The position numbers and the translations under genes were made by a program. 9,905 nt of DNA. Source: a virus. Taxonomy: Duplodnaviria; Heunggongvirae; Uroviricota; Caudoviricetes. A model generated the notes under the pieces. The model did no database searches, was not told the DNA's origin, and saw nothing but the letters and a program-made list of their open reading frames with translations. Shown piece by piece: positions 1 to 9,905 of this stretch. The stretch lies in IMG/VR virus record IMGVR_UViG_2711768022_000003, one strand, 5' to 3'. Every line of letters starts with the position of its first letter. The stretch's first letter is position 1.

Positions 1-17
1 GCCTGTCCAATGTGCAT

Positions 18-50
18 AAAAAAATCCGGAAACAAGTGAGCGTTTCCGGA
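18..50 (-). terminator. Intrinsic terminator-like hairpin just downstream of the portal stop
   Basis: Perfect 9-bp inverted repeat tccggaaac (25-33) / gtttccgga (42-50) with 8-nt loop; on the minus strand the stem is followed by a run of 7 T (complement of A-run 18-24). Confidence 0.55.
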
Positions 51-84
51 TTCTTACACAGCCACTGGATCGGTCAACTGATCC

Positions 85-1332
85 TTAACTGATCGGCATT
101 ACACCACCGGGACGCGGATTCATATCTTCCAGGTCGCGGCAGTCATTGGAAGAGTAAATTCCCCAGTTGATCCCGGTGGCGTAGGCTTCAAAACGGGACT
201 TCATATCCCCGCGCAGTAACGCCCCGGCGTTAAATTTGGCGTAATAAACGCCCTGCTTACTTTTTCGTACCAGTCCGGTGTTGATCCGCTGTTCGATGCG
301 GGTCAGATACGGCACCAGTGAATAGTTGATAAATCCCAGCCCCAGCTCTTCGATATTGTTGAAGGTGGCGCGATCGGTGTTCTGCACCATGTGCAACGGC
401 ACCCGGAACAGACGACAGATTTCTTCCAGCTGAAACTTGCGGGTTTCCAGGAACTGACTGTCCTCGGCGTTCAGCGCCATCGACTTCCAGTCCAGCCCCA
501 TTTCCAGAATCATCGGGCGGTGAGCATTGCCAAGCCCCGTGTGACACTCCTCAAAATCTTTCTTCAGACGCTCGTAAGCATCCGGCGTGAGCTTTTGTTC
601 CGTACGCAACACACCGGATGTCACCGCACCATTACTAAACAACCTGGCACCGTGCTCCTCGGTTGCCGCTGCCAGTGAAATGGCCTCACGCGCATACGCA
701 ATGGGATTCAGCCCGACAAGTCCATCCAGCGTCAGGGTGCGCACATGCCAGATTTCATTCTGGGTCAACACATCCACGGAACCATCCGGAAACGTCACCT
801 GATAAACCGGCTGCCACTGGCTGTTCAGCTTCGGTTCCACACAGCCCGGATCTATCGGAAGAAGCTCCACCACTTCTCCCAGTGCCTTTACCTTGTAGGC
901 GTAAAAATTCCCCCGTAGACACAGGCAGACAATAACCAGCTCCCAGAATTCCTGCGGTGTCATGTAGCCATTAGGTTTTGCCGAAACCAACTTATGCAGT
1001 CGTTCATCCACCGCCCGTGTTTTCAGGGTACCGCTGATTTTGTAGAGACTGCAGGGCAGCATACCAACAGACTCTGCCAGCACCCTGACGCAAGAATAGA
1101 CCGCCGTCAGGCGCATGGCCCGCTGGCTACTGATCCGCTTTCCGGTATAGGTGTCGTATGACAGCCCGATAGCATCAGCAGTTCTGCTGGCGTGGTCACC
1201 GGCACATCGCTTTTTCGTTGAAATAATCCCGAAAAGAACACTATTTACCTCCGCCGACAGACTGCCGTGTACGGTCGAGATATCGCGCCACCAGCCACGA
1301 CCAGAACAGGCACAGCGCCCCGGCAACAACAA
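85..1332 (-). CDS. Phage portal protein, HK97 family (start codon unresolved)
   Basis: Long minus ORF immediately after terL. Translation carries portal-like segments (NSVLFG near the N-terminus, [55 protein letters not shown]). The listed start at 1330-1332 is TTG; the first in-frame ATG is at 1114-1116, after conserved-looking N-terminal sequence, so 1332 is an upper bound. Confidence 0.8.
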
Positions 1333-1423
1333 AACCCGCCGGGGGATAAATCAGCCAGGCACCATACGCCAGCAAAAGCGCACCCAGCACGCCCACCAGA
1401 GGCGCGAGAATCAGCATGATCAT
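1241..1423 (-). CDS. Small hydrophobic protein (60 aa, two predicted TM segments), hypothetical
   Basis: ATG at 1421-1423 preceded by GAGGT with 4-nt spacing, 11 nt after the terL stop. Translation [60 protein letters not shown] is strongly hydrophobic. It overlaps the 5' end of the maximal portal ORF in another frame. Confidence 0.45.
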
Positions 1424-1434
1424 AATTACCTCAG

Positions 1435-3168
1435 TTAAAGCGAGCGGATCCCGTAGGACTCAATGTGGTCAGACAGCGTGTCTTCTTTCTCGTACAGCAT
1501 GGCTCTGCCAACCGCCATAATCAGCGCAACTGCACCATCGATTTTGTTTTCCGCCTGCTCTTTGACGGGTTTCACCACATCATCGTTACCCGGCATGTTT
1601 TTGCCGACCACGTTGCCGATACACCAGGTCATGATGGGATTGCCGTCATGATGAAAACGTCCCGATTCAATCGCTGCTTCCAGCTCTTTCATCGGATCGG
1701 ACATATTGGTGAAGTTCTGGACGATAGTGACGGGATTCAGGTCTTCATCAGCAAGGTCATGTGACAACCCGGTCGCCCCGAAGGGGTCGATGGGTGACTC
1801 ACTGACCGGGCTGATTTTGTTCGCCGCTTTGGCCTCCTCGAGGATGTAGCGATAATCCACCTCCGCACCATCGGTAACGGTCAGAACGCCCATTTCCACC
1901 CATTTCTGAAAGCGTTCGGCTGTCCGTCGATCTTCATTTTTCTCGACGCTGTACACCGTGTCATACGGTACCCAGAAACGCGGGGCCACACTGTAGTAAT
2001 GCGTTTTACCGTCAATCTCGCGGGTATAAAGTCGCGCCATGCTGTTCATATCCAGCTTACGCGCCAGGTCAAAGGCCAGAATGCACGGCTGCCCCTCGAA
2101 CTGCTCAAGGGTCAGTGATTTATCCTCGCAGCTCTGCCAGCTCACCAAGTTGAAATACGCCGAACGCGCCGACACCCAGATATTGAGGTGTTTTGTTTTA
2201 AAGACGTTTGCCAGACGGGCGTTATTTTTCGCACGCTGCTGCTGACTTAACAAAAATTCGCGATAAACCGACACGCCAATATTTGGATTGGCTTTTTCCA
2301 GCACCTGCGGGCCGGTCCAGTCGTCACCTTCATCAACGGTATAGATGATCCCGAACAGTTCATCGTTAGGCACCGAGCCGTTGAGCATCTCGATGACTTC
2401 CCGCCGCTTGTCGTAGCACGGCCCCTCAATGTTGTACCCGGCGGTGGTGATGGCCCACATCAGTGGCTGACGTCGCGCCCCCATCCCGGTAAGCATTGTG
2501 GTATAAAGCGCATCGGTGGCATGCTCGTGATATTCATCAACCACGGCACAGTGGGGTGATGAACCATCACCTGGGTTGCCGATCAGCGGTTCAAACCGCG
2601 CGCCATCCTCCGGACGGTTCATGTTTGAGGCGTTAACCTCAATCCCGAACGCTTCCGTCAGCATGGGTGTGCGTTTACACATCAGTCGCGCCGGGCGAAA
2701 GACTTCCCACGCCTGTTTCTCTGTCGTGGCACCGGAATACACTTCCGCGCCAAACTCGTTATCACAGGCAAAACAATACAGGGCAACACCGGCAGAGATT
2801 GCTGATTTGCCGTTCTTACGGGGGATTTCGGTGTACACCTCCCGGAAGCGGCGCAACCGGGTGCCTTTATTGACCCAGCCAAACGCACAGCAGATCACAA
2901 ATAGCTGCCACGGCTCCAGCGTGATGGGCATCCGTTTGAATGCCCACTCCCCCTTGGTGTGCGGCAACAGCTGAATAAATTTCGCGGCCCGTTCAGCCAG
3001 GTCCTTGTCGAAGCGGTAACGAAACGACTTACTTTTTTCCGCCATCAGGTCATCAAGATGGCGCTGGCAGGCCTGAATCACAAACTGGCAGGCAACAATC
3101 TTTCCGCGCACGACATCCCGGGCATACTGATTTGCAGCATTTACGTTGGGGTAAGATTTCCGGCTCAT
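1435..3168 (-). CDS. terL: Terminase large subunit (577 aa)
   Basis: 577-aa ORF with ATG start overlapping the terS stop (ATGA at 3165-3168). Size and position between terS and portal fit a phage large terminase; assignment is by gene order and overall resemblance, not by a motif I can cite exactly. Confidence 0.9.
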
Positions 3169-3659
3169 GATTCGATAATTTTCAGAAACGGGTTAGTGGC
3201 TTTCTTCTGCCCCGCCAGGCCAATCAGACGCTGGCGGCTGCTGGGGTCGAGTCCGAGCATTGCCCCCGTGCTGCTCATCTCGGACTCCTGTTCTTTTTTG
3301 GCGGTCAGCTCCGGATTTTTGACCCTGCCGCCCATTGCACCGGTGATGGTGTTGCCCTGTATGGCAATATTTTTCACGGCACGTCGCCAGAACTCATAGG
3401 CCACGCACCACCGCTCAAGTACCGCCAGGTCAGTCACGCACAGCAGGCCCTGACCGCAGAGTTCTTTGGTTGTCAGTTGCCACATGATCGTGGCGAGAGG
3501 GAGATCTTCTTCAGCGAACCACTCTGGTGGCTCAACACCTTTGATGGGCGTAAAAACAGGTTCATCTTTGTTCAGGGCTCGCTTGCCGGGGTTTCCGGCC
3601 AGCGCCTTGCGCGCCGTTGGCTTGGGGCGACGCCCGGAACGCCCCGCCGTTCCAGCCAT
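3165..3659 (-). CDS. terS: Terminase small subunit, P27-like (164 aa)
   Basis: ORF-track start at 3668 is GTG directly abutting the SD. ATG at 3657-3659 has AGGAG 8 nt upstream and gives [20 protein letters not shown]..., a basic Gly/Arg-rich N-terminus typical of P27-family small terminases. Stop overlaps the terL start. Confidence 0.85.
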
Positions 3660-3693
3660 ATGCGGCACTCCTGGTTAAATTTCATTTTTCGCG

Positions 3694-3761
3694 GGTATAA
3701 AAAAACGATGGGGCGGGCAGTCCGGAAGACGTCAGGTCACAGGGATTTGCCCCGCCCCTCC
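3694..3761. other. Putative cos region or structured element between HNH and terS
   Basis: GC-rich inverted repeat ggggcggg (3710-3717) / cccgcccc (3751-3758) flanking a 33-nt spacer that contains gacgtc and tccgga palindromes, with an A-run at 3694-3705 (T-run on minus). In HK97-like phages cos lies between the HNH gene and terS. Confidence 0.3.
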
Positions 3762-3780
3762 CTACAAGTGAGAATAATTA

Positions 3781-4131
3781 TCACCGGATTCGTTCGCGCG
3801 CTGTTTTCGCTTTATGGCAGGGCCAGCACAGACTCTGCAGGTTGCTGTCTGCGTCTGTTCCGCCATGCGCTTTCGGGATGATGTGGTCGACGGTTTTCGC
3901 CTCGCTCACCACACCGACACGCAGACACAACTGACACAGACCTTTATCGCGCTTCAGAATACGGGCACGAATCACCGTCCATTTTGAGCCATAGCCACGC
4001 TGGTGGCGGCTCAGTCCGCGCTGGTGCTGCACCCAGCCTTCACCGCGATGTTTATCGCAGTAACCCGAACTGTCTGTGGTTGTACCTGCACATCCACGCT
4101 TACGGCAGGCACGTGGGATTAGTGATGGCAT
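3781..4131 (-). CDS. HNH endonuclease (116 aa), terminase-associated type
   Basis: ATG at 4129-4131 with GAGGT 4 nt upstream. Cys-rich N-terminus (CRKRGCAGTTTDSSGYCDKH) and C-terminal HNH signature (DHIIPKAHGGTDADSNLQSLCWPCHKAK). Sits immediately upstream of cos and terS as in HK97-like phages. Confidence 0.9.
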   Translation of the reverse strand: MPSLIPRACRKRGCAGTTTDSSGYCDKHRGEGWVQHQRGLSRHQRGYGSKWTVIRARILKRDKGLCQLCLRVGVVSEAKTVDHIIPKAHGGTDADSNLQSLCWPCHKAKTARERIR

Positions 4132-4173
4132 AAATACCTCATACCCTGCGAAATGTTTACCACGATAAAAAGG

Positions 4174-4420
4174 CTACTTAATGCACTGAGTGCGGATATA
4201 CTCCTGTGCCCCTTCCAGTTGCATCTGCATCGTCATCAGCCGCTCTCTGAGGGTGAAATAATCCCGTTCAGCGGTGTCTGCCAGTCGGGGGCTGGTTGCA
4301 TTATCCACGCCGGAGGCGGTGGTGGCTTCACGCACTGACTGACAGACTGCTTTGATGTGCAACCGACGACGACCAGCGGCAACATCAGCGCGCAGAGTTT
4401 CATTTTCAGCTTTCGCATCA
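4174..4420 (-). CDS. Rz: Rz i-spanin, 3' part only (5' end lost in N gap)
   Basis: Visible 81 C-terminal residues DAKAENETLRADVAAGRRRLHIKAVCQSVREATTASGVDNATSPRLADTAERDYFTLRERLMTMQMQLEGAQEYIRTQCIK closely resemble the C-terminal half of lambda Rz as I recall it. The reading frame runs into the N-run at 4421. Confidence 0.9.
4236..4418 (-). CDS. Rz1: Rz1 o-spanin lipoprotein (60 aa), embedded in Rz in an alternate frame
   Basis: ATG at 4416-4418. Translation MRKLKMKLCALMLPLVVVGCTSKQSVSQCVKPPPPPAWIMQPAPDWQTPLNGIISPSESG has a lipobox (VVGC) and a proline-rich stretch, closely matching lambda Rz1 as recalled. Entirely inside the Rz reading frame. Confidence 0.85.
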   Translation of the reverse strand: MRKLKMKLCALMLPLVVVGCTSKQSVSQCVKPPPPPAWIMQPAPDWQTPLNGIISPSESG

Positions 4421-4810
4421 NNNNNNNNNNNNNNNNNNNNNNNNNNNNNNNNNNNNNNNNNNNNNNNNNNNNNNNNNNNNNNNNNNNNNNNNNNNNNNNN
4501 NNNNNNNNNNNNNNNNNNNNNNNNNNNNNNNNNNNNNNNNNNNNNNNNNNNNNNNNNNNNNNNNNNNNNNNNNNNNNNNNNNNNNNNNNNNNNNNNNNNN
4601 NNNNNNNNNNNNNNNNNNNNNNNNNNNNNNNNNNNNNNNNNNNNNNNNNNNNNNNNNNNNNNNNNNNNNNNNNNNNNNNNNNNNNNNNNNNNNNNNNNNN
4701 NNNNNNNNNNNNNNNNNNNNNNNNNNNNNNNNNNNNNNNNNNNNNNNNNNNNNNNNNNNNNNNNNNNNNNNNNNNNNNNNNNNNNNNNNNNNNNNNNNNN
4801 NNNNNNNNNN
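4421..4810. other. Assembly or masking gap (390 N)
   Basis: Uninterrupted run of n from 4421 to 4810; it interrupts the endolysin and the 5' half of Rz. Confidence 0.99.
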
Positions 4811-4900
4811 ACCACCTGGGCCAGTGATTAACACAGATGCTATAGCAACAGCCCCACCACCAATAGCAGCTGCAACAGCCTTGCGTAATGATGGCGACAT
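4811..4900 (-). CDS. SAR endolysin (phage-21 R21-like lysozyme), N-terminal 30 codons only
   Basis: ATG at 4898-4900 overlaps the holin stop (TAATG). N-terminus [30 protein letters not shown] is a Gly/Ala-rich signal-arrest-release domain resembling phage 21 R21 as recalled. The rest is in the gap. Confidence 0.8.
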
Positions 4901-5115
4901 TATTCACCTCTCGCAGCCTTACGCTTGTCTTCTCTTATTTTGAAATACAGATTTGTCAGATAAGTCAGAAGCCCCAGAAGCAGACTTCCCAGCACACCAA
5001 TCGCAGCCCACTGTGATGGACTGACCTGATCCAACCACTGCAAAAACCAGTAGCCGGCACTGCCGGCGGAGGTGCCGTAGGCAATGCCTGTTGATATTTT
5101 TTCCATCTGATACAT
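4900..5115 (-). CDS. Class II holin / pinholin (S21, EssD-like), 71 aa with dual-start motif
   Basis: Translation [71 protein letters not shown] resembles phage 21 S21 and DLP12 EssD as recalled. Met1 and Met4 give the typical antiholin/holin dual start. Two TM segments and a charged C-terminus. Confidence 0.9.
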
Positions 5116-5144
5116 ATCCCGCCCCCCGACAGACCTGTGCTATC

Positions 5145-5182
5145 GGAAAGAAAAAAGGCCATCAGCAAAACTCTGATGGCCT
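5145..5182 (-). terminator. Rho-independent terminator upstream of the lysis cassette
   Basis: Perfect 9-bp stem ggccatcag (5157-5165) / ctgatggcc (5173-5181) with 7-nt loop; on the minus strand it is followed by TTTTTTCTTTCC (complement of 5145-5156). Confidence 0.65.
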
Positions 5183-5290
5183 GAATCACCTTTACCAATA
5201 TTGTATGAAAAAACACGCACGACTAATTGACAATAATTTTCATTTCCATTAAAAAAGATCGCGTAGCATTCTTAATTCATGAGGAACTTT

Positions 5291-5356
5291 ACCCGCCAGC
5301 AATCTGAGTAGCGAAAGCTGTTCATCCCCAATGTTTTTGCTGGCGGGTCCTTTTTT
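5291..5356 (+). terminator. Plus-strand-oriented terminator-like hairpin (11-bp perfect stem plus T6)
   Basis: acccgccagca (5291-5301) pairs perfectly with tgctggcgggt (5338-5348). The 36-nt loop contains an agc-GAAA-gct mini-hairpin. The stem is followed on the plus strand by cc + tttttt (5351-5356). On the minus strand no T-tract follows. Confidence 0.3.
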
Positions 5357-5795
5357 CTACGGTCCTCCTCCCCGGAGGGGGGCATTTCATTATTTTTCTA
5401 ATCGTTACTGGTGAGAAGGCGGAAGAAAAAGCCAGTTCTTCGCCCCTAAATAACAGCATGATTCCAGTCCATGCAAAATCTGATTTCCAGCTCACACATA
5501 CCGAGCACTGTACAAAAAACCGCCAGCCAAGGCAGTTAAGAGTGTGTTCCCGGGGTTTGCTTAGAATATTTTGTAAGTTGTCCGAAGAGATATTTACAAC
5601 ACCAGAATGATGAATCATCAGTCCCCTGCCAGAGGTTCACTACGTAACCTGACCGACAATGCACCATTCTGGTGCTGAAAAAAGAGCACTGGAACTGCAA
5701 CAAAACAACATCACAGAACAGGAGATGGTAAGGAGTCAGACATTCCCACACAATATTGTGTCAGTGCAAATAACAACCTTCGTCTCAAATCTCGC

Positions 5796-5870
<75 letters not shown>

Positions 5871-5873
5871 ATA

Positions 5874-5949
<76 letters not shown>

Positions 5950-5951
5950 GC

Positions 5952-6028
5952 TGGCCCACCACCGAGGACTCGAACCTCGCACCGTCAACTTAGAAGGTTG
6001 ATGCTCTATCCGGATGAGCTAGTGGTGG
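5952..6028 (-). tRNA. tRNA-Arg (anticodon UCU), 77 nt
   Basis: CCACCACTAGCTCATCCGGATAGAGCATCAACCTTCTAAGTTGACGGTGCGAGGTTCGAGTCCTCGGTGGTGGGCCA: acceptor CCACCAC/GTGGTGG, anticodon loop CTTCTAA, T-loop TTCGAGT, CCA encoded. Unusual C1-G72 first pair. Confidence 0.8.
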
Positions 6029-6029
6029 T

Positions 6030-6106
6030 TGGTGGCCCTTGCTGGACTTGAACCAGCGACCTGGCGATTATGAGTCGCTCGCTCTGACCAACTGAGCTAA
6101 AGGGCC
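6030..6106 (-). tRNA. tRNA with CAU anticodon, most likely tRNA-Ile2 (lysidine type, reads AUA), 77 nt
   Basis: GGCCCTTTAGCTCAGTTGGTCAGAGCGAGCGACTCATAATCGCCAGGTCGCTGGTTCAAGTCCAGCAAGGGCCACCA. Anticodon arm GCGACTCATAATCGC and T-arm GGTCGCTGGTTCAAGTCCAGC resemble E. coli ileX rather than elongator Met as recalled. Ile-versus-Met identity cannot be settled without a classifier. Confidence 0.8.
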
Positions 6107-6115
6107 GGAGGCAGA

Positions 6116-6144
6116 ATAATAACCATATGTCATCACATCTGCAA
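6116..6144 (-). promoter_or_regulatory. Candidate sigma70 promoter for the tRNA array
   Basis: On the minus strand: TTGCAG (complement of 6139-6144), 17-bp spacer, TATTAT (complement of 6116-6121), then 9 nt to the mature 5' end of the first tRNA. Motif-only prediction. Confidence 0.3.
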
Positions 6145-6192
6145 ACTCATCTGACCACCAGCACGTTTAACGTCCTGTGCCGTTTTTCAGGT

Positions 6193-6220
6193 ATAAAAAA
6201 ACCCGCTCATCGGCGGGTTT
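6193..6220 (-). terminator. Intrinsic terminator downstream of the ORF6N gene
   Basis: Perfect stem aaacccgc (6199-6206) / gcgggttt (6213-6220) with 6-nt loop; on the minus strand the GC core is followed by about 7 T (complement of 6195-6201). Confidence 0.6.
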
Positions 6221-6295
6221 AAGCTGTGTGGCGTAGTAACCACTCTTAACAGGATATTCAACTTTTTACGATCGTAAAGTTTTCGGAAAAAATTT

Positions 6296-6859
6296 TTAAA
6301 ACCGCATCAACCGCTCCACCAGTTGCTCTTTACGGGCAACGATCCACCCGTGTTGCTCCAGATAAAATTTAAACCGTTCCAGAGTACATACCATCGCATC
6401 GGCGGGTACCTTTTCCGTGAACTCAACCTGACCGTGTTTATCGAAGTGGCTCAGTAATGCGCATCCATCATTTTCGATAGATGTGTTTTGTGCCGCTGGT
6501 GGCTGTTTCTGGTTGAAATAACAGTCTTCCAGTTTTTCGAACACTTCCCACGCCTGATCGGTTTCGAGCATTTTGGCGTGACGGGCTGCGCCACGTTCTG
6601 TCCAGAGGATGAGGGAGCGAACGTTACGGGCAATTTTCACAGAAACTCTTAAAGAGTTTTCGTTCTTCAACTCTCGTAACGCATCACCTTCTATCAGGAA
6701 AAAATGTTTACCTTCTATAAACCGTTCTTTGTTTCGATTGAAATTGTTTGTCAAACGCTGGCGCTCTGTTCCGTACAAATCAGCCAGCAGCTCTGTTGTC
6801 ATGACAGGAAGATGGTTATGCGTAAGTGACGGGAGTTTTTCAATAGACGTGCGATTCAT
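6296..6859 (-). CDS. ORF6N-domain protein (phage antirepressor-like DNA-binding protein), 187 aa
   Basis: Start chosen at ATG 6857-6859 (AAAGGA 7 nt upstream); the ORF-track start at 7057 is GTG with no SD. N-terminal half (VMTTELLADLYGTERQRLTNNFNRNKERFIEGKHFFLIEGDALRELK ... SLILWTERGAARHAKMLETDQAWEVFEKLEDCYF) matches the ORF6N / KilA-N-like pattern from memory. The C-terminal ~70 aa are unassigned. Confidence 0.65.
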   Translation of the reverse strand: MNRTSIEKLPSLTHNHLPVMTTELLADLYGTERQRLTNNFNRNKERFIEGKHFFLIEGDALRELKNENSLRVSVKIARNVRSLILWTERGAARHAKMLETDQAWEVFEKLEDCYFNQKQPPAAQNTSIENDGCALLSHFDKHGQVEFTEKVPADAMVCTLERFKFYLEQHGWIVARKEQLVERLMRF

Positions 6860-7065
6860 AGACATGTCCTTTCGAATATTTTGATTTACCCCTTTTGAGA
6901 GGGTGACCGGGCGCTCAAAACCGTCGAAAGTCGGCGGGCGTATTTCCATTGCTGGTATTGTATTAGCCGCACACCCGGTCATAAACCAAGAATTCTGGAC
7001 ACAAAAAAACCACATGGCTATCGGGTGTGGATACCGCTTTCGAGGTGTTTTGAGCACCGCGGGGA

Positions 7066-7094
7066 AATGTAAACTGCAAACCTGAAACTGTCAA
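7066..7094 (-). promoter_or_regulatory. Candidate sigma70 promoter for the ORF6N moron
   Basis: Minus strand: perfect -35 TTGACA (complement of 7089-7094), 17-bp spacer, -10 TACATT (complement of 7066-7071). About 200 nt upstream of the ORF6N start. Confidence 0.3.
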
Positions 7095-7218
7095 CACCGT
7101 CAGGTTCCAATCATCGGGTGGTGAGACGCACAGGGTTGGAACTACCGGGAAACCGACCGGCGAGCTTTTCAGCTCCCCCATGCGCCCCACCATAATTCAG
7201 ATGTGCGCGTGCATACGA

Positions 7219-7244
7219 CAATAAAAAACACGCTCGCGGCGTGT
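7219..7244 (-). terminator. tR'-like terminator downstream of the late promoter
   Basis: Stem acacgc (7228-7233) / gcgtgt (7239-7244) with 5-nt loop; on the minus strand it is followed by TTTTTATTG (complement of 7219-7227). About 75 nt downstream of the predicted pR' -10. Confidence 0.45.
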
Positions 7245-7305
7245 GTCTGTCGCGGTCTCTATCCGGGGTTCCAATCCCGACGCCAGATTTTGCTGGCGCG
7301 TGAGG

Positions 7306-7335
7306 AATATAGCCCCGGACAATGTGTCTGGTCAA
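7306..7335 (-). promoter_or_regulatory. Late promoter pR'-like (probable Q-utilisation region)
   Basis: Minus strand: -35 TTGACC (complement of 7330-7335) starts 5 nt after the Q stop; 18-bp spacer; -10 TATATT (complement of 7306-7311). Position immediately downstream of Q matches lambdoid pR'. Confidence 0.5.
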
Positions 7336-7339
7336 GCAC

Positions 7340-7726
7340 CTACATAATTCGTTCTACGTATCTGTCCATCTCCAGCCGGATATCAAGCATCATCAACATG
7401 CCATCAATAACCCCTTCCGCTTTCTGCAGGCGCTTGCCAATACAGGTATCCGAACACCCATGTTTCCGTGCCAGACTCATAAAAGTCATTCCACCTACGT
7501 AATAATCCACCAGCAAATCGTGCAAATCCTGATTTTTCTTGTTCAACCGGGCCATACAGCCACAAATTATCATTGCATCATCATCAGAACACTGAGGGCG
7601 TGATTTCACTTTCGACGGAATTAACCCTTTAAAACCAGCAGCGATCGACGCCCAGGATACATCTTCATGAGTGTTTGCAGCCCAAGCCCCCCACCGTTCC
7701 ATAACCTGCTGAATATCACGCGCCAT
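7340..7726 (-). CDS. Q: Late-gene antitermination protein Q (phage 82 / QuuD-type), 128 aa
   Basis: Start chosen at ATG 7724-7726 (AGGTGA 5 nt upstream) rather than the upstream ATG at 7745-7747. Translation [61 protein letters not shown] ... [23 protein letters not shown] resembles DLP12 QuuD as recalled. Overlaps the rusA 3' end by 11 nt. Confidence 0.88.
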
Positions 7727-8087
7727 CGTTATCACCTGTGATTTCATAAATCTTCACGCCCAGTCGCCCACCAGGAACGAGCTGACCGCGCACAATATTG
7801 ATTTCATCAAACTGCTCGTCGTCTATGAGTAGTCCGGCATGCGTCAGCGCATCCAGTGGTGCTTTCAGGATATTGTCCAGGTCACGACGGCGCTTATCCG
7901 GTGGCTCTGCAATAATCTTTATCGCCAGCCTTCCGGACAGGTTTAATTTCAGCCGCTGCTGGCGAACAATTAGCGTCACATCACGGCGATAACGCTCACC
8001 AACTTTTGATACAAAATATGTGCTGCCACGACGTCGCCAGTAAGTATTCACCGTCGGCGGATAAGGTAAAATAAACTCATGGCGCAT
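7716..8087 (-). CDS. rusA: RusA Holliday-junction resolvase (123 aa)
   Basis: ATG at 8085-8087 with GGAGG upstream. Translation carries the RusA-type acidic catalytic cluster ([11 protein letters not shown] ... LLIDDEQ) and the expected length. Nin-region position upstream of Q. Confidence 0.88.
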
Positions 8088-8344
8088 CAGCGCAGCACCT
8101 CCTGCACCATTTTTTCAAACTTTCCAACTTTGGTTTCCAGCTCTGCCACACAATCAACGAGCTCATCCACCGCTTTTTGTGCGCGATGTTTCGCCTGCAT
8201 CAGTTCCCTGAGCGCTGGCACCATATCCCGACGAATGGCATCTTTTGTTACACCTGTTTTTTCCAGTTGTTCCGCCTGTCGCAACATTTCCTGCGCGTGT
8301 TTACGCAATTGTTCAGAGGTAAAAGTCATTGTCTGGTTGTTCAA
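8087..8344 (-). CDS. Hypothetical small helical protein (85 aa from TTG, or 80 aa from ATG at 8327-8329)
   Basis: Minus ORF between helicase and rusA. TTG at 8342-8344 has GGAG 8 nt upstream and overlaps the helicase stop (TTGA). Stop overlaps the rusA ATG (ATGA). Translation (MNNQT)MTFTSEQLRKHAQEMLRQAEQLEKTG... is charged and helical-looking; no family recognised. Confidence 0.5.
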   Translation of the reverse strand: MNNQTMTFTSEQLRKHAQEMLRQAEQLEKTGVTKDAIRRDMVPALRELMQAKHRAQKAVDELVDCVAELETKVGKFEKMVQEVLR

Positions 8345-9732
8345 AAGAAACGCTCCATCTTACTGCTGTCGGTACGTGTATTGCTGTATCTGCGCGGCTG
8401 GGGCTGCCGCATTGGGGTGGAAAGAACCTGTGCGCTTTCCTGGTCCACAGGCAGAAAATGTCCGTTATAAAAACGCCGGTAAATCGTCCCCAGAGAACCG
8501 TTACGTTGTTTCGTGATATTAATTTCTGCTATGCCTGTAGCCTGTGTATCCGGGTTGTACACTTCATCCCTGTAAAGCATCAGAATGATGTCTGCATCCG
8601 CCTCTATTTCTCCGGAATTTTTCAGGTCTGAGTTCATGGGACGTTTATTGGGTCTGGACTCCACACCGCGGGAGAGCTGGCTCAGCGCAATCAACGGAAA
8701 ACCACCGGATTTTGCCAGGCCTTTAAGCCCCTTTGAGATTTCACCCACGGCAAGGTCATGACGCCCCGTGGTTCGGGTTTTTATCAGCCCGAGATAATCA
8801 ACCACCACCAGCGCCGTTTCCGGATGTTTAATCAGATGGTGTTTCGTTGTTGCGCATATCTCATCAATGGTCAGGTTCGCCTGGTCCACCATCCAGATAT
8901 TGCGCCCGGTCATCCGCCCCACCCCTTGTGAGAAACGCGCCCAGTCTTCATCTTCAAAGTGAGCCACAGATTTCAGGCGTGATACTGGCATCCCTCCAGC
9001 CGCAGACACCATACGTTCACCAATCTGGATGTTCGCCATCTCCATGGTGAACAGAAGCACACCATGCCCCTGCTCAGTCACCTTGTCGATGATGTCCAGC
9101 GCAAGTTCGGTTTTCCCCATCGAAGGACGGGCGGCAATGAATACCAGGTCTCCGGGCTCCATACCGCCTGTTTTTGCGTCCAGTTCATCAATACCGGTCA
9201 TCAACGTCCTGGATTTCTCCAGCCCCTGATTCCGGCATTCAACACGCTCAACCACTTCCGGAAGCACATCATCAATATGTACCGGCTGAATGACGCCCTT
9301 TCCTGTCGACAGTGTGACCATCATGTTCTGCGCATCCTTCAGGGCATCTTCAGCTGCTTCACAGGTATGCGCATCACGTAATTTCTGCAGCGCCTCATTC
9401 AGTGTTTTTTCTGCATCGCGCAGTGCGGCATTGCGCCGCAACGCTGCAACATAGTGCTCCAGTGAAGACTTCACCCAGGTTTTACGCCCGGTATCAGTAA
9501 TCACCGGGGCAAGTTCCGGCATCTCATTACACAACAGCACGGGGTCAATCACTCCTGAAACACGGGCCTGTCTGCAGATGCCTGTGTAGATATCCCGATA
9601 CGCTCGTACAGAAAAAATGTCCGCCGGTAGTGTGATCAGAATATCCATCACTTCATGATCTGCCCCACGCAGAAAGAATGCGCCAATGACAGCGCCTTCC
9701 AGGTCATCATTACGCCAGACTGGTGTTGTCAT
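8341..9732 (-). CDS. Replicative DNA helicase, DnaB family (463 aa)
   Basis: Start set at ATG 9730-9732 (GAGGTG 7 nt upstream); the ORF-track start at 9873 is GTG. Walker A motif (AARPSMGKTELAL) and DnaB C-terminal domain features (VVVDYLGLI, PLIALSQLSRGVESRPNKRPMNSDL, DADIILMLYRDEVY). Confidence 0.9.
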   Translation of the reverse strand: MTTPVWRNDDLEGAVIGAFFLRGADHEVMDILITLPADIFSVRAYRDIYTGICRQARVSGVIDPVLLCNEMPELAPVITDTGRKTWVKSSLEHYVAALRRNAALRDAEKTLNEALQKLRDAHTCEAAEDALKDAQNMMVTLSTGKGVIQPVHIDDVLPEVVERVECRNQGLEKSRTLMTGIDELDAKTGGMEPGDLVFIAARPSMGKTELALDIIDKVTEQGHGVLLFTMEMANIQIGERMVSAAGGMPVSRLKSVAHFEDEDWARFSQGVGRMTGRNIWMVDQANLTIDEICATTKHHLIKHPETALVVVDYLGLIKTRTTGRHDLAVGEISKGLKGLAKSGGFPLIALSQLSRGVESRPNKRPMNSDLKNSGEIEADADIILMLYRDEVYNPDTQATGIAEINITKQRNGSLGTIYRRFYNGHFLPVDQESAQVLSTPMRQPQPRRYSNTRTDSSKMERFF

Positions 9733-9905
9733 GCAGCCACACCTCTGATACAAGAACGGTAGCTGGGCCAGTTGAACGACAACCAGTTGCGCCCCCCGTC
9801 TGTGATCCTGTCGGCAATGCGGGGGCTGATGAACGCTGGATTTGCCCCTATATTTCCAGACACCTGTTATCACTTAACCCATTACTGGCTTGCTGCCGTA
9901 GATAT

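Follow-up and report, generated by a model that had tools for sequence, protein, structure and literature searches.

The lysis cassette of phage 21 (OL657228.1) carries the genes of the S21 pinholin, the R21 SAR endolysin and the spanin proteins Rz/Rz1. Its gene order and overlapping ATGA junctions are shared by the cassette in the window, which is the whole stretch of 9,905 nt of viral DNA analysed in this study (IMG/VR record IMGVR_UViG_2711768022_000003), and its Gly/Ala-rich SAR segment and residues E35, D44 and T50 are common to the endolysin reconstructed below. By analogy with phage 21, the pinholin of the window cassette would depolarise the inner membrane, the release of the SAR endolysin into the periplasm and its activation would follow, and the Rz/Rz1 spanin would finally disrupt the outer membrane. 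RrrD of E. coli, a DLP12-type prophage lysozyme (PDB 4zpu), belongs to the same endolysin family, and the homologous E. coli gene is named rrrD in the NCBI annotation; it comes from another prophage context, and the equivalence is one of naming only.

In the window, the cassette is located on the minus strand and is interrupted after endolysin codon 30, ahead of the last 81 codons of Rz, by the only N run present. The features of the window are as follows.

85..1332, minus strand: portal gene of the lambdoid late region
1435..3168, minus strand: large terminase gene (TerL) of the lambdoid late region
3165..3668, minus strand: small terminase gene, P27 family, directly downstream of the HNH gene
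3781..4131, minus strand: HNH endonuclease gene, 96.6% DNA identity to phage phiP27
4174..4420, minus strand: i-spanin Rz, C-terminal 81 codons and stop; full Rz is 154 aa, with PF03245 at 3e-52 (reconstructed)
4236..4418, minus strand: o-spanin Rz1, complete, 60 aa, lipobox VVGC; PF06085 at 6e-20, 55/60 identical to phage 21 Rz1
4418..4900, minus strand: spurious 160-codon ORF made by the gap, in which the endolysin frame continues across the Ns and stops at an out-of-frame TGA (4418..4420)
4421..4810, no strand: N run (assembly gap) of 390 N; 622 nt at the same place in all identical-flank relatives, hence 232 nt short
4811..4900, minus strand: SAR endolysin of phage-21 type, first 30 codons (SAR domain only); 27/30 identical to phage 21 R
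4900..5115, minus strand: S21-type class II holin/pinholin, complete, 71 aa; PF04971 at 1.5e-35, 65/71 identical to phage 21 S
5796..6106, minus strand: tRNA array of Gly(TCC), Thr(TGT), Arg(TCT) and Met/Ile2(CAT), between the ORF6N-domain gene and the holin gene

The HNH-terminase pair is placed straight after the spanin genes, and the pairing of an HNH gene with terminase genes is usual in cos-type phages. Upstream of the holin gene are found the four tRNA genes, an ORF6N-domain gene, Q, and RusA and DnaB-like genes. Stx phages have their tRNA genes and stx at the site that this array occupies; in the window, the site is without a toxin gene. Short-read draft contigs of the locus all end at window 107-109. 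In finished relatives an IS4-like transposase follows immediately past this point and the annotation gives the portal gene as truncated, and the window itself reaches about 106 nt into the IS4-like element. The portal gene is thus cut by this element, and the prophage is therefore defective.

The preliminary description, made from the window alone, had counted 30 endolysin codons and 81 Rz codons beside the gap, and both counts are exact: 4811..4900 encodes endolysin residues 1-30 and 4174..4420 the last 81 Rz codons with the stop, each on the minus strand. A point absent from that description is that Rz1 and the holin are intact. Rz1 is wholly embedded in Rz and out of frame with it, as expected of an embedded two-component spanin, and its ATG lies 2 nt from the gap edge. 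The holin, a PF04971 pinholin, starts with MYQM and has a dual start at Met1/Met4; the holin stop and the endolysin ATG overlap at 4900. At the endolysin N-terminus a weakly hydrophobic Gly/Ala-rich SAR segment replaces a cleavable signal peptide. The remainder of the endolysin (residues 31-165, including the catalytic E35/D44/T50) falls inside the gap, together with Rz residues 1-73, which include the N-terminal membrane anchor.

Relatives were gathered by exact-protein look-ups with the TerL and HNH proteins of the window, which returned the same locus from a large number of genomes, both finished and draft. The left flank (1..4420) is identical to Shigella sonnei Ss046 (CP000038.1) and several other genomes at 4420/4420 positions (100%), and the right flank (4811..8936) is identical to CP000038.1 and other genomes at 4125/4126 positions (99.98%). 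All 14 loci with exact gap-edge anchors, from Ss046 and 13 other genomes, contain an identical filling of 622 nt between the flanks. The same distance was found in E. coli H11 / FDAARGOS_944 and in phage 21. Sixty loci could be anchored to both gap edges, with a spacing of 622 nt in 57, 621 nt in one and 601 nt in two; none of the 60 shows a spacing near 390 nt. Moreover, the pair of edge 21-mers spaced for 390 nt is absent from 2.9 million IMG/VR contigs and from 180 loci, in a search where the window, used as control, matches.

A sibling sequence was retrieved by a look-up with the small ORF carrying a private SNP of the window. It is a 10,052-nt draft contig without gaps (L042, GCA_013947765.1), which has the same A at 5507 and aligns with the window plus the 622-nt filling (L042:5119-5740, reverse strand) over window 109..9905 with 0 mismatches and 0 gaps. 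A 41-mer with the private SNP, sought in genome, viral and metagenome contigs, retrieved relatives only; one of them, L025, is 100% identical to the window, but begins at window 5420. With the filling read from a sibling contig, the match to L042 is the nearest thing to a closure of the gap that can be had without the isolate, and the isolate itself would carry the same filling as its relatives.

Position 5507 lies in a small ORF on the minus strand (5322..5618) and is the only position at which some 8.5 kb of determined bases differ from Ss046. The A is also present in other cassette contexts, those of the L020, L026, L029 and L030 types, and the exact 98-aa product of this ORF occurs in only 34 collection blocks, spread over three different prophage contexts. 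This distribution points to an exchange between co-resident prophages, by gene conversion or recombination, or else to cross-talk of repeats in the assembly.

The hidden length can be derived from the genes as well. It comprises 408 nt of endolysin (codons 31-165 and the stop) and 218 nt of Rz (codons 1-73 minus one visible base), less the 4 nt of the ATGA overlap, which gives 622 nt. The preliminary description had placed the gap at 4421-4810 inside the lysis cassette, judged it too short, and estimated about 600 nt as missing on the basis of an R21-like endolysin of about 165 aa and a lambda-like Rz of about 153 aa. Location and estimate agree well with the relatives, where 622 nt lie between the flanks, the endolysin has 165 aa and Rz 154 aa, so that the shortfall of the 390 N is 232 nt.

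The reconstructed endolysin of 165 aa is identical to phage 21 R at 158/165 residues and keeps E35, D44 and T50. It contains PF00959 at residues 34-156 (2e-45; the catalytic part is read in L042) and matches the structures PDB 3hde (1e-108) and 4zpu, which is RrrD (1.6e-109, residues 1-165). The entry 3hde, a 165-residue 'Lysozyme', is phage 21 R. The full Rz, at 4174..4638 in closed coordinates, is identical to phage 21 Rz at 135/154 residues, and its N-terminal anchor MSRVTAIISALVICIIVCLSW is read in relatives only. As read there, the hidden genes are ordinary, a PF00959 lysozyme of family GH24 and a PF03245 Rz.

The sequence comparison shows that the real length of the gap differs from the N count, the flanks being collinear with gap-free genomes at another distance. 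Two explanations had been offered in the preliminary description, namely that the gap length is not real or that the endolysin is unusually short. The first is supported by the 622-nt spacing in the identical-flank relatives. The second fails on arithmetic: once the 218 nt of Rz are subtracted from 390 nt, only about 57 endolysin codons are left, whereas PF00959 spans residues 34-156, and a complete endolysin of shorter length is therefore impossible and was rejected.

The wrong length has direct effects on gene prediction. Since 390 is 0 modulo 3 and 622 is 1 modulo 3, the endolysin frame runs through the Ns and yields the spurious ORF listed above, while the real endolysin stop lies within the hidden 622 nt. 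False N-terminally extended ORFs of Rz and Rz1 also arise from the gap. A truncated or unusually short endolysin could thus be wrongly inferred from the window, and coordinates downstream of the gap are off by 232 nt with respect to the real genome.

On these grounds the N run very likely represents a scaffold gap, in a draft of S. sonnei type, that hides 622 nt of ordinary sequence, i.e. the last 135 endolysin codons together with Rz codons 1-73. Most probably the assembler would have broken at the cassette, a near-exact repeat among several lambdoid prophages in one genome, and the contig break would then have been bridged by paired reads, with 390 as a size estimate that is 232 nt too low. 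The number 390 is more probably such a paired-read estimate than an arbitrary one; to our knowledge, it is not among the conventional placeholder sizes such as 10, 50 and 100.

The cassette is indeed a multi-copy element, by counts that cover complete E. coli genomes and five IMG genomes. The 622-nt filling is present in 5066 of the 5426 complete E. coli genomes; the median is 2 places per genome and the maximum 8. In the five IMG genomes, each with two prophage contigs, exact runs of 77-690 nt that overlap the gap region are common to both cassette copies, and these runs reach 200-690 nt in four of the five. The cassette variants differ by scattered SNPs only. Furthermore, in short-read sibling drafts from the same lineage, contigs stop within the hidden part of the cassette, at gap+308 (L047), gap+333 (L012), gap+427 (L046) and gap+495 (L048 and L051). 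Three of these four break positions, representing four of the five contig ends, are 1 nt away from SNPs that separate variants (gap+307, +334 and +494). The longest contig carrying TerL measures only 2-5 kb in 1733 of 4305 collection blocks, and such short contigs are compatible with frequent breaks at the cassette. Because the cassette is present in several copies and sibling drafts break inside it, a repeat-induced gap with an underestimated size is therefore the most economical explanation. The sizes of scaffold gaps are estimates with biased, long-tailed errors (PMC9326850), although an error of 232 nt is large for an estimate from short-insert paired ends and counts against the reading of 390 as a size estimate.

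Several IMG/VR pieces also end in the endolysin/Rz stretch, at gap+534 (L056), gap+426 (L062), gap+281 (L095), gap+336 (L145) and gap+524 (L170). They are short pieces, mostly taken from the interiors of long scaffolds, and their contigs go on past these ends; L095 and L145 begin at the first base of their contigs. From such piece ends, other public scaffolds may be discontinuous at the same cassette. In a record of about 5.0 Mb with a related cassette (CP024694.1; L039:1078-1176), a run of 99 N is found about 1.8 kb upstream of the holin gene, as a further gap close to this late region rich in repeats.

The bases at the gap edges, 4420 and gap+622, are variable sites, at which the L007/L014 type and many other haplotypes differ. 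A proposal that the edges were set by the SNPs of cassette variants was dropped, as 383 of 861 positions (44%) show variation somewhere among 96 haplotypes. Masking that preserves length and a consensus from reads mapped to a reference were also set aside as the main explanation, since with either one the gap would hold 622 N, except in a genome that had truly lost sequence here.

Look-ups of the holin and Rz1 proteins, in which each context is represented by one record, showed the modules to be mosaic. The cassette is a mosaic joint in L043, L044, L051 and L171-L180. An identical holin/endolysin segment is combined there with varying upstream modules (Q of the PF06530 type versus DUF1367/YbcO/DUF1133) and varying downstream modules (HNH/TerS/TerL versus a VTT-domain gene with Terminase_3/Mu_F). 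Some of these mosaic contigs could be assembly chimeras across the repeat. A further case is the pair L007 (CP044191.1) and L014 (CP032523.1), an otherwise nearly identical prophage that shows about 70 SNPs and a 3-nt indel within window 4207..4871. This segment extends from the C-terminal part of Rz into the N-terminal part of the endolysin and resembles a discrete patch of recombination across the gap.

It is improbable that the gap conceals a strain-specific event, whether an IS-mediated replacement or a 232-nt deletion, that inactivated endolysin and Rz in a decaying prophage; if so, the N run would be a real structural difference from all sequenced relatives. Among structural changes, an IS in place of the 622 nt, or some other insertion or rearrangement, would have destroyed endolysin and Rz and left neither 390 nor 622 as the right length. 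Shigella genomes are rich in IS elements, a multi-copy IS would likewise cause an assembly gap, and the prophage is already defective through the IS4-like element past window 107 that cuts the portal gene in relatives. IS-disrupted cassettes are known too: the homology of L016 and L021 ends at window 4891 by IS66 and IS3-type genes, and L035 has IS genes on its flanks. However, a simple IS insertion leaves the contig ends adjacent in the reference, and here they are 622 nt apart, so an IS insertion would need an additional exact deletion. The cassette is moreover intact in all 14 identical-flank relatives and in L042, which shares even the private SNP, and we regard a structural change of this kind as distinctly improbable. 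The preliminary description had held that a rearrangement hidden in the gap is not assessable; this stands insofar as a formal exclusion is impossible, but the 100% identical sibling contig makes such a rearrangement unlikely.

Still harder to accept is that the N run has its true length and real bases were hard-masked, the genome having only 390 nt here through a frame-shifting deletion of 232 nt in endolysin and/or Rz. One public collection does contain stretches masked as N, 390 is no conventional placeholder size, and the decay of a defective prophage is plausible. Against this, none of the 60 anchored relatives has a distance near 390 nt, the search of IMG/VR and the 180 loci returned no edge sequences spaced at exactly 390 nt, L042 is intact, and the deletion would have to fall wholly within the mask by coincidence. 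The 57 codons or so that remain beside the hidden part of Rz are too few for the lysozyme domain, and we consider this explanation highly improbable.

That the hidden 622 nt represent a different endolysin-Rz allele, e.g. of the L007/L014 type, rather than the filling of L042 and Ss046, is also highly improbable: the SNPs confined to 4207..4871 in that same prophage do point to a tract exchanged by recombination, and the Rz1-HNH module is also found paired with lysins of 177 aa and 158 aa, but in the visible parts of the tract (4207..4420 and 4811..4871) the window has 0 mismatches to the Ss046/L042 allele, whereas the L007 type differs from these parts at 31 and 8 positions, respectively.

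The gap is thus very probably an assembly artefact over a well-known gene set, with nothing unusual hidden in it. Its significance is practical, as a warning for annotation, and not biological. As this case also shows, short-read assemblies of Shigella and E. coli break repeatedly at the phage-21-type lysis cassette.

Compared with known systems, the window resembles most closely the defective lambdoid prophage of S. sonnei Ss046 (CP000038.1, 2924425-2938158), with the same gene content and order. The Ss046 prophage and the same locus in other finished genomes contain 622 nt and no gap, whereas the window contains 390 N, and at 5507 the window has A where Ss046-type records have G. The relationship to phage 21 is more distant, with a DNA identity of only about 92%. 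Downstream of the cassette, the window continues into the HNH gene and phiP27-type terminase genes and phage 21 into the bor region. Unlike phage 21, the window has N in place of 135 endolysin and 73 Rz codons. At collapsed repeats with gaps of estimated size, an N run likewise joins contigs that are collinear with finished genomes, and the missing piece is multi-copy. In scaffolders that estimate gap sizes, the N count deviates from the true distance (PMC9326850), as it does in the window, which we infer to belong to this class.
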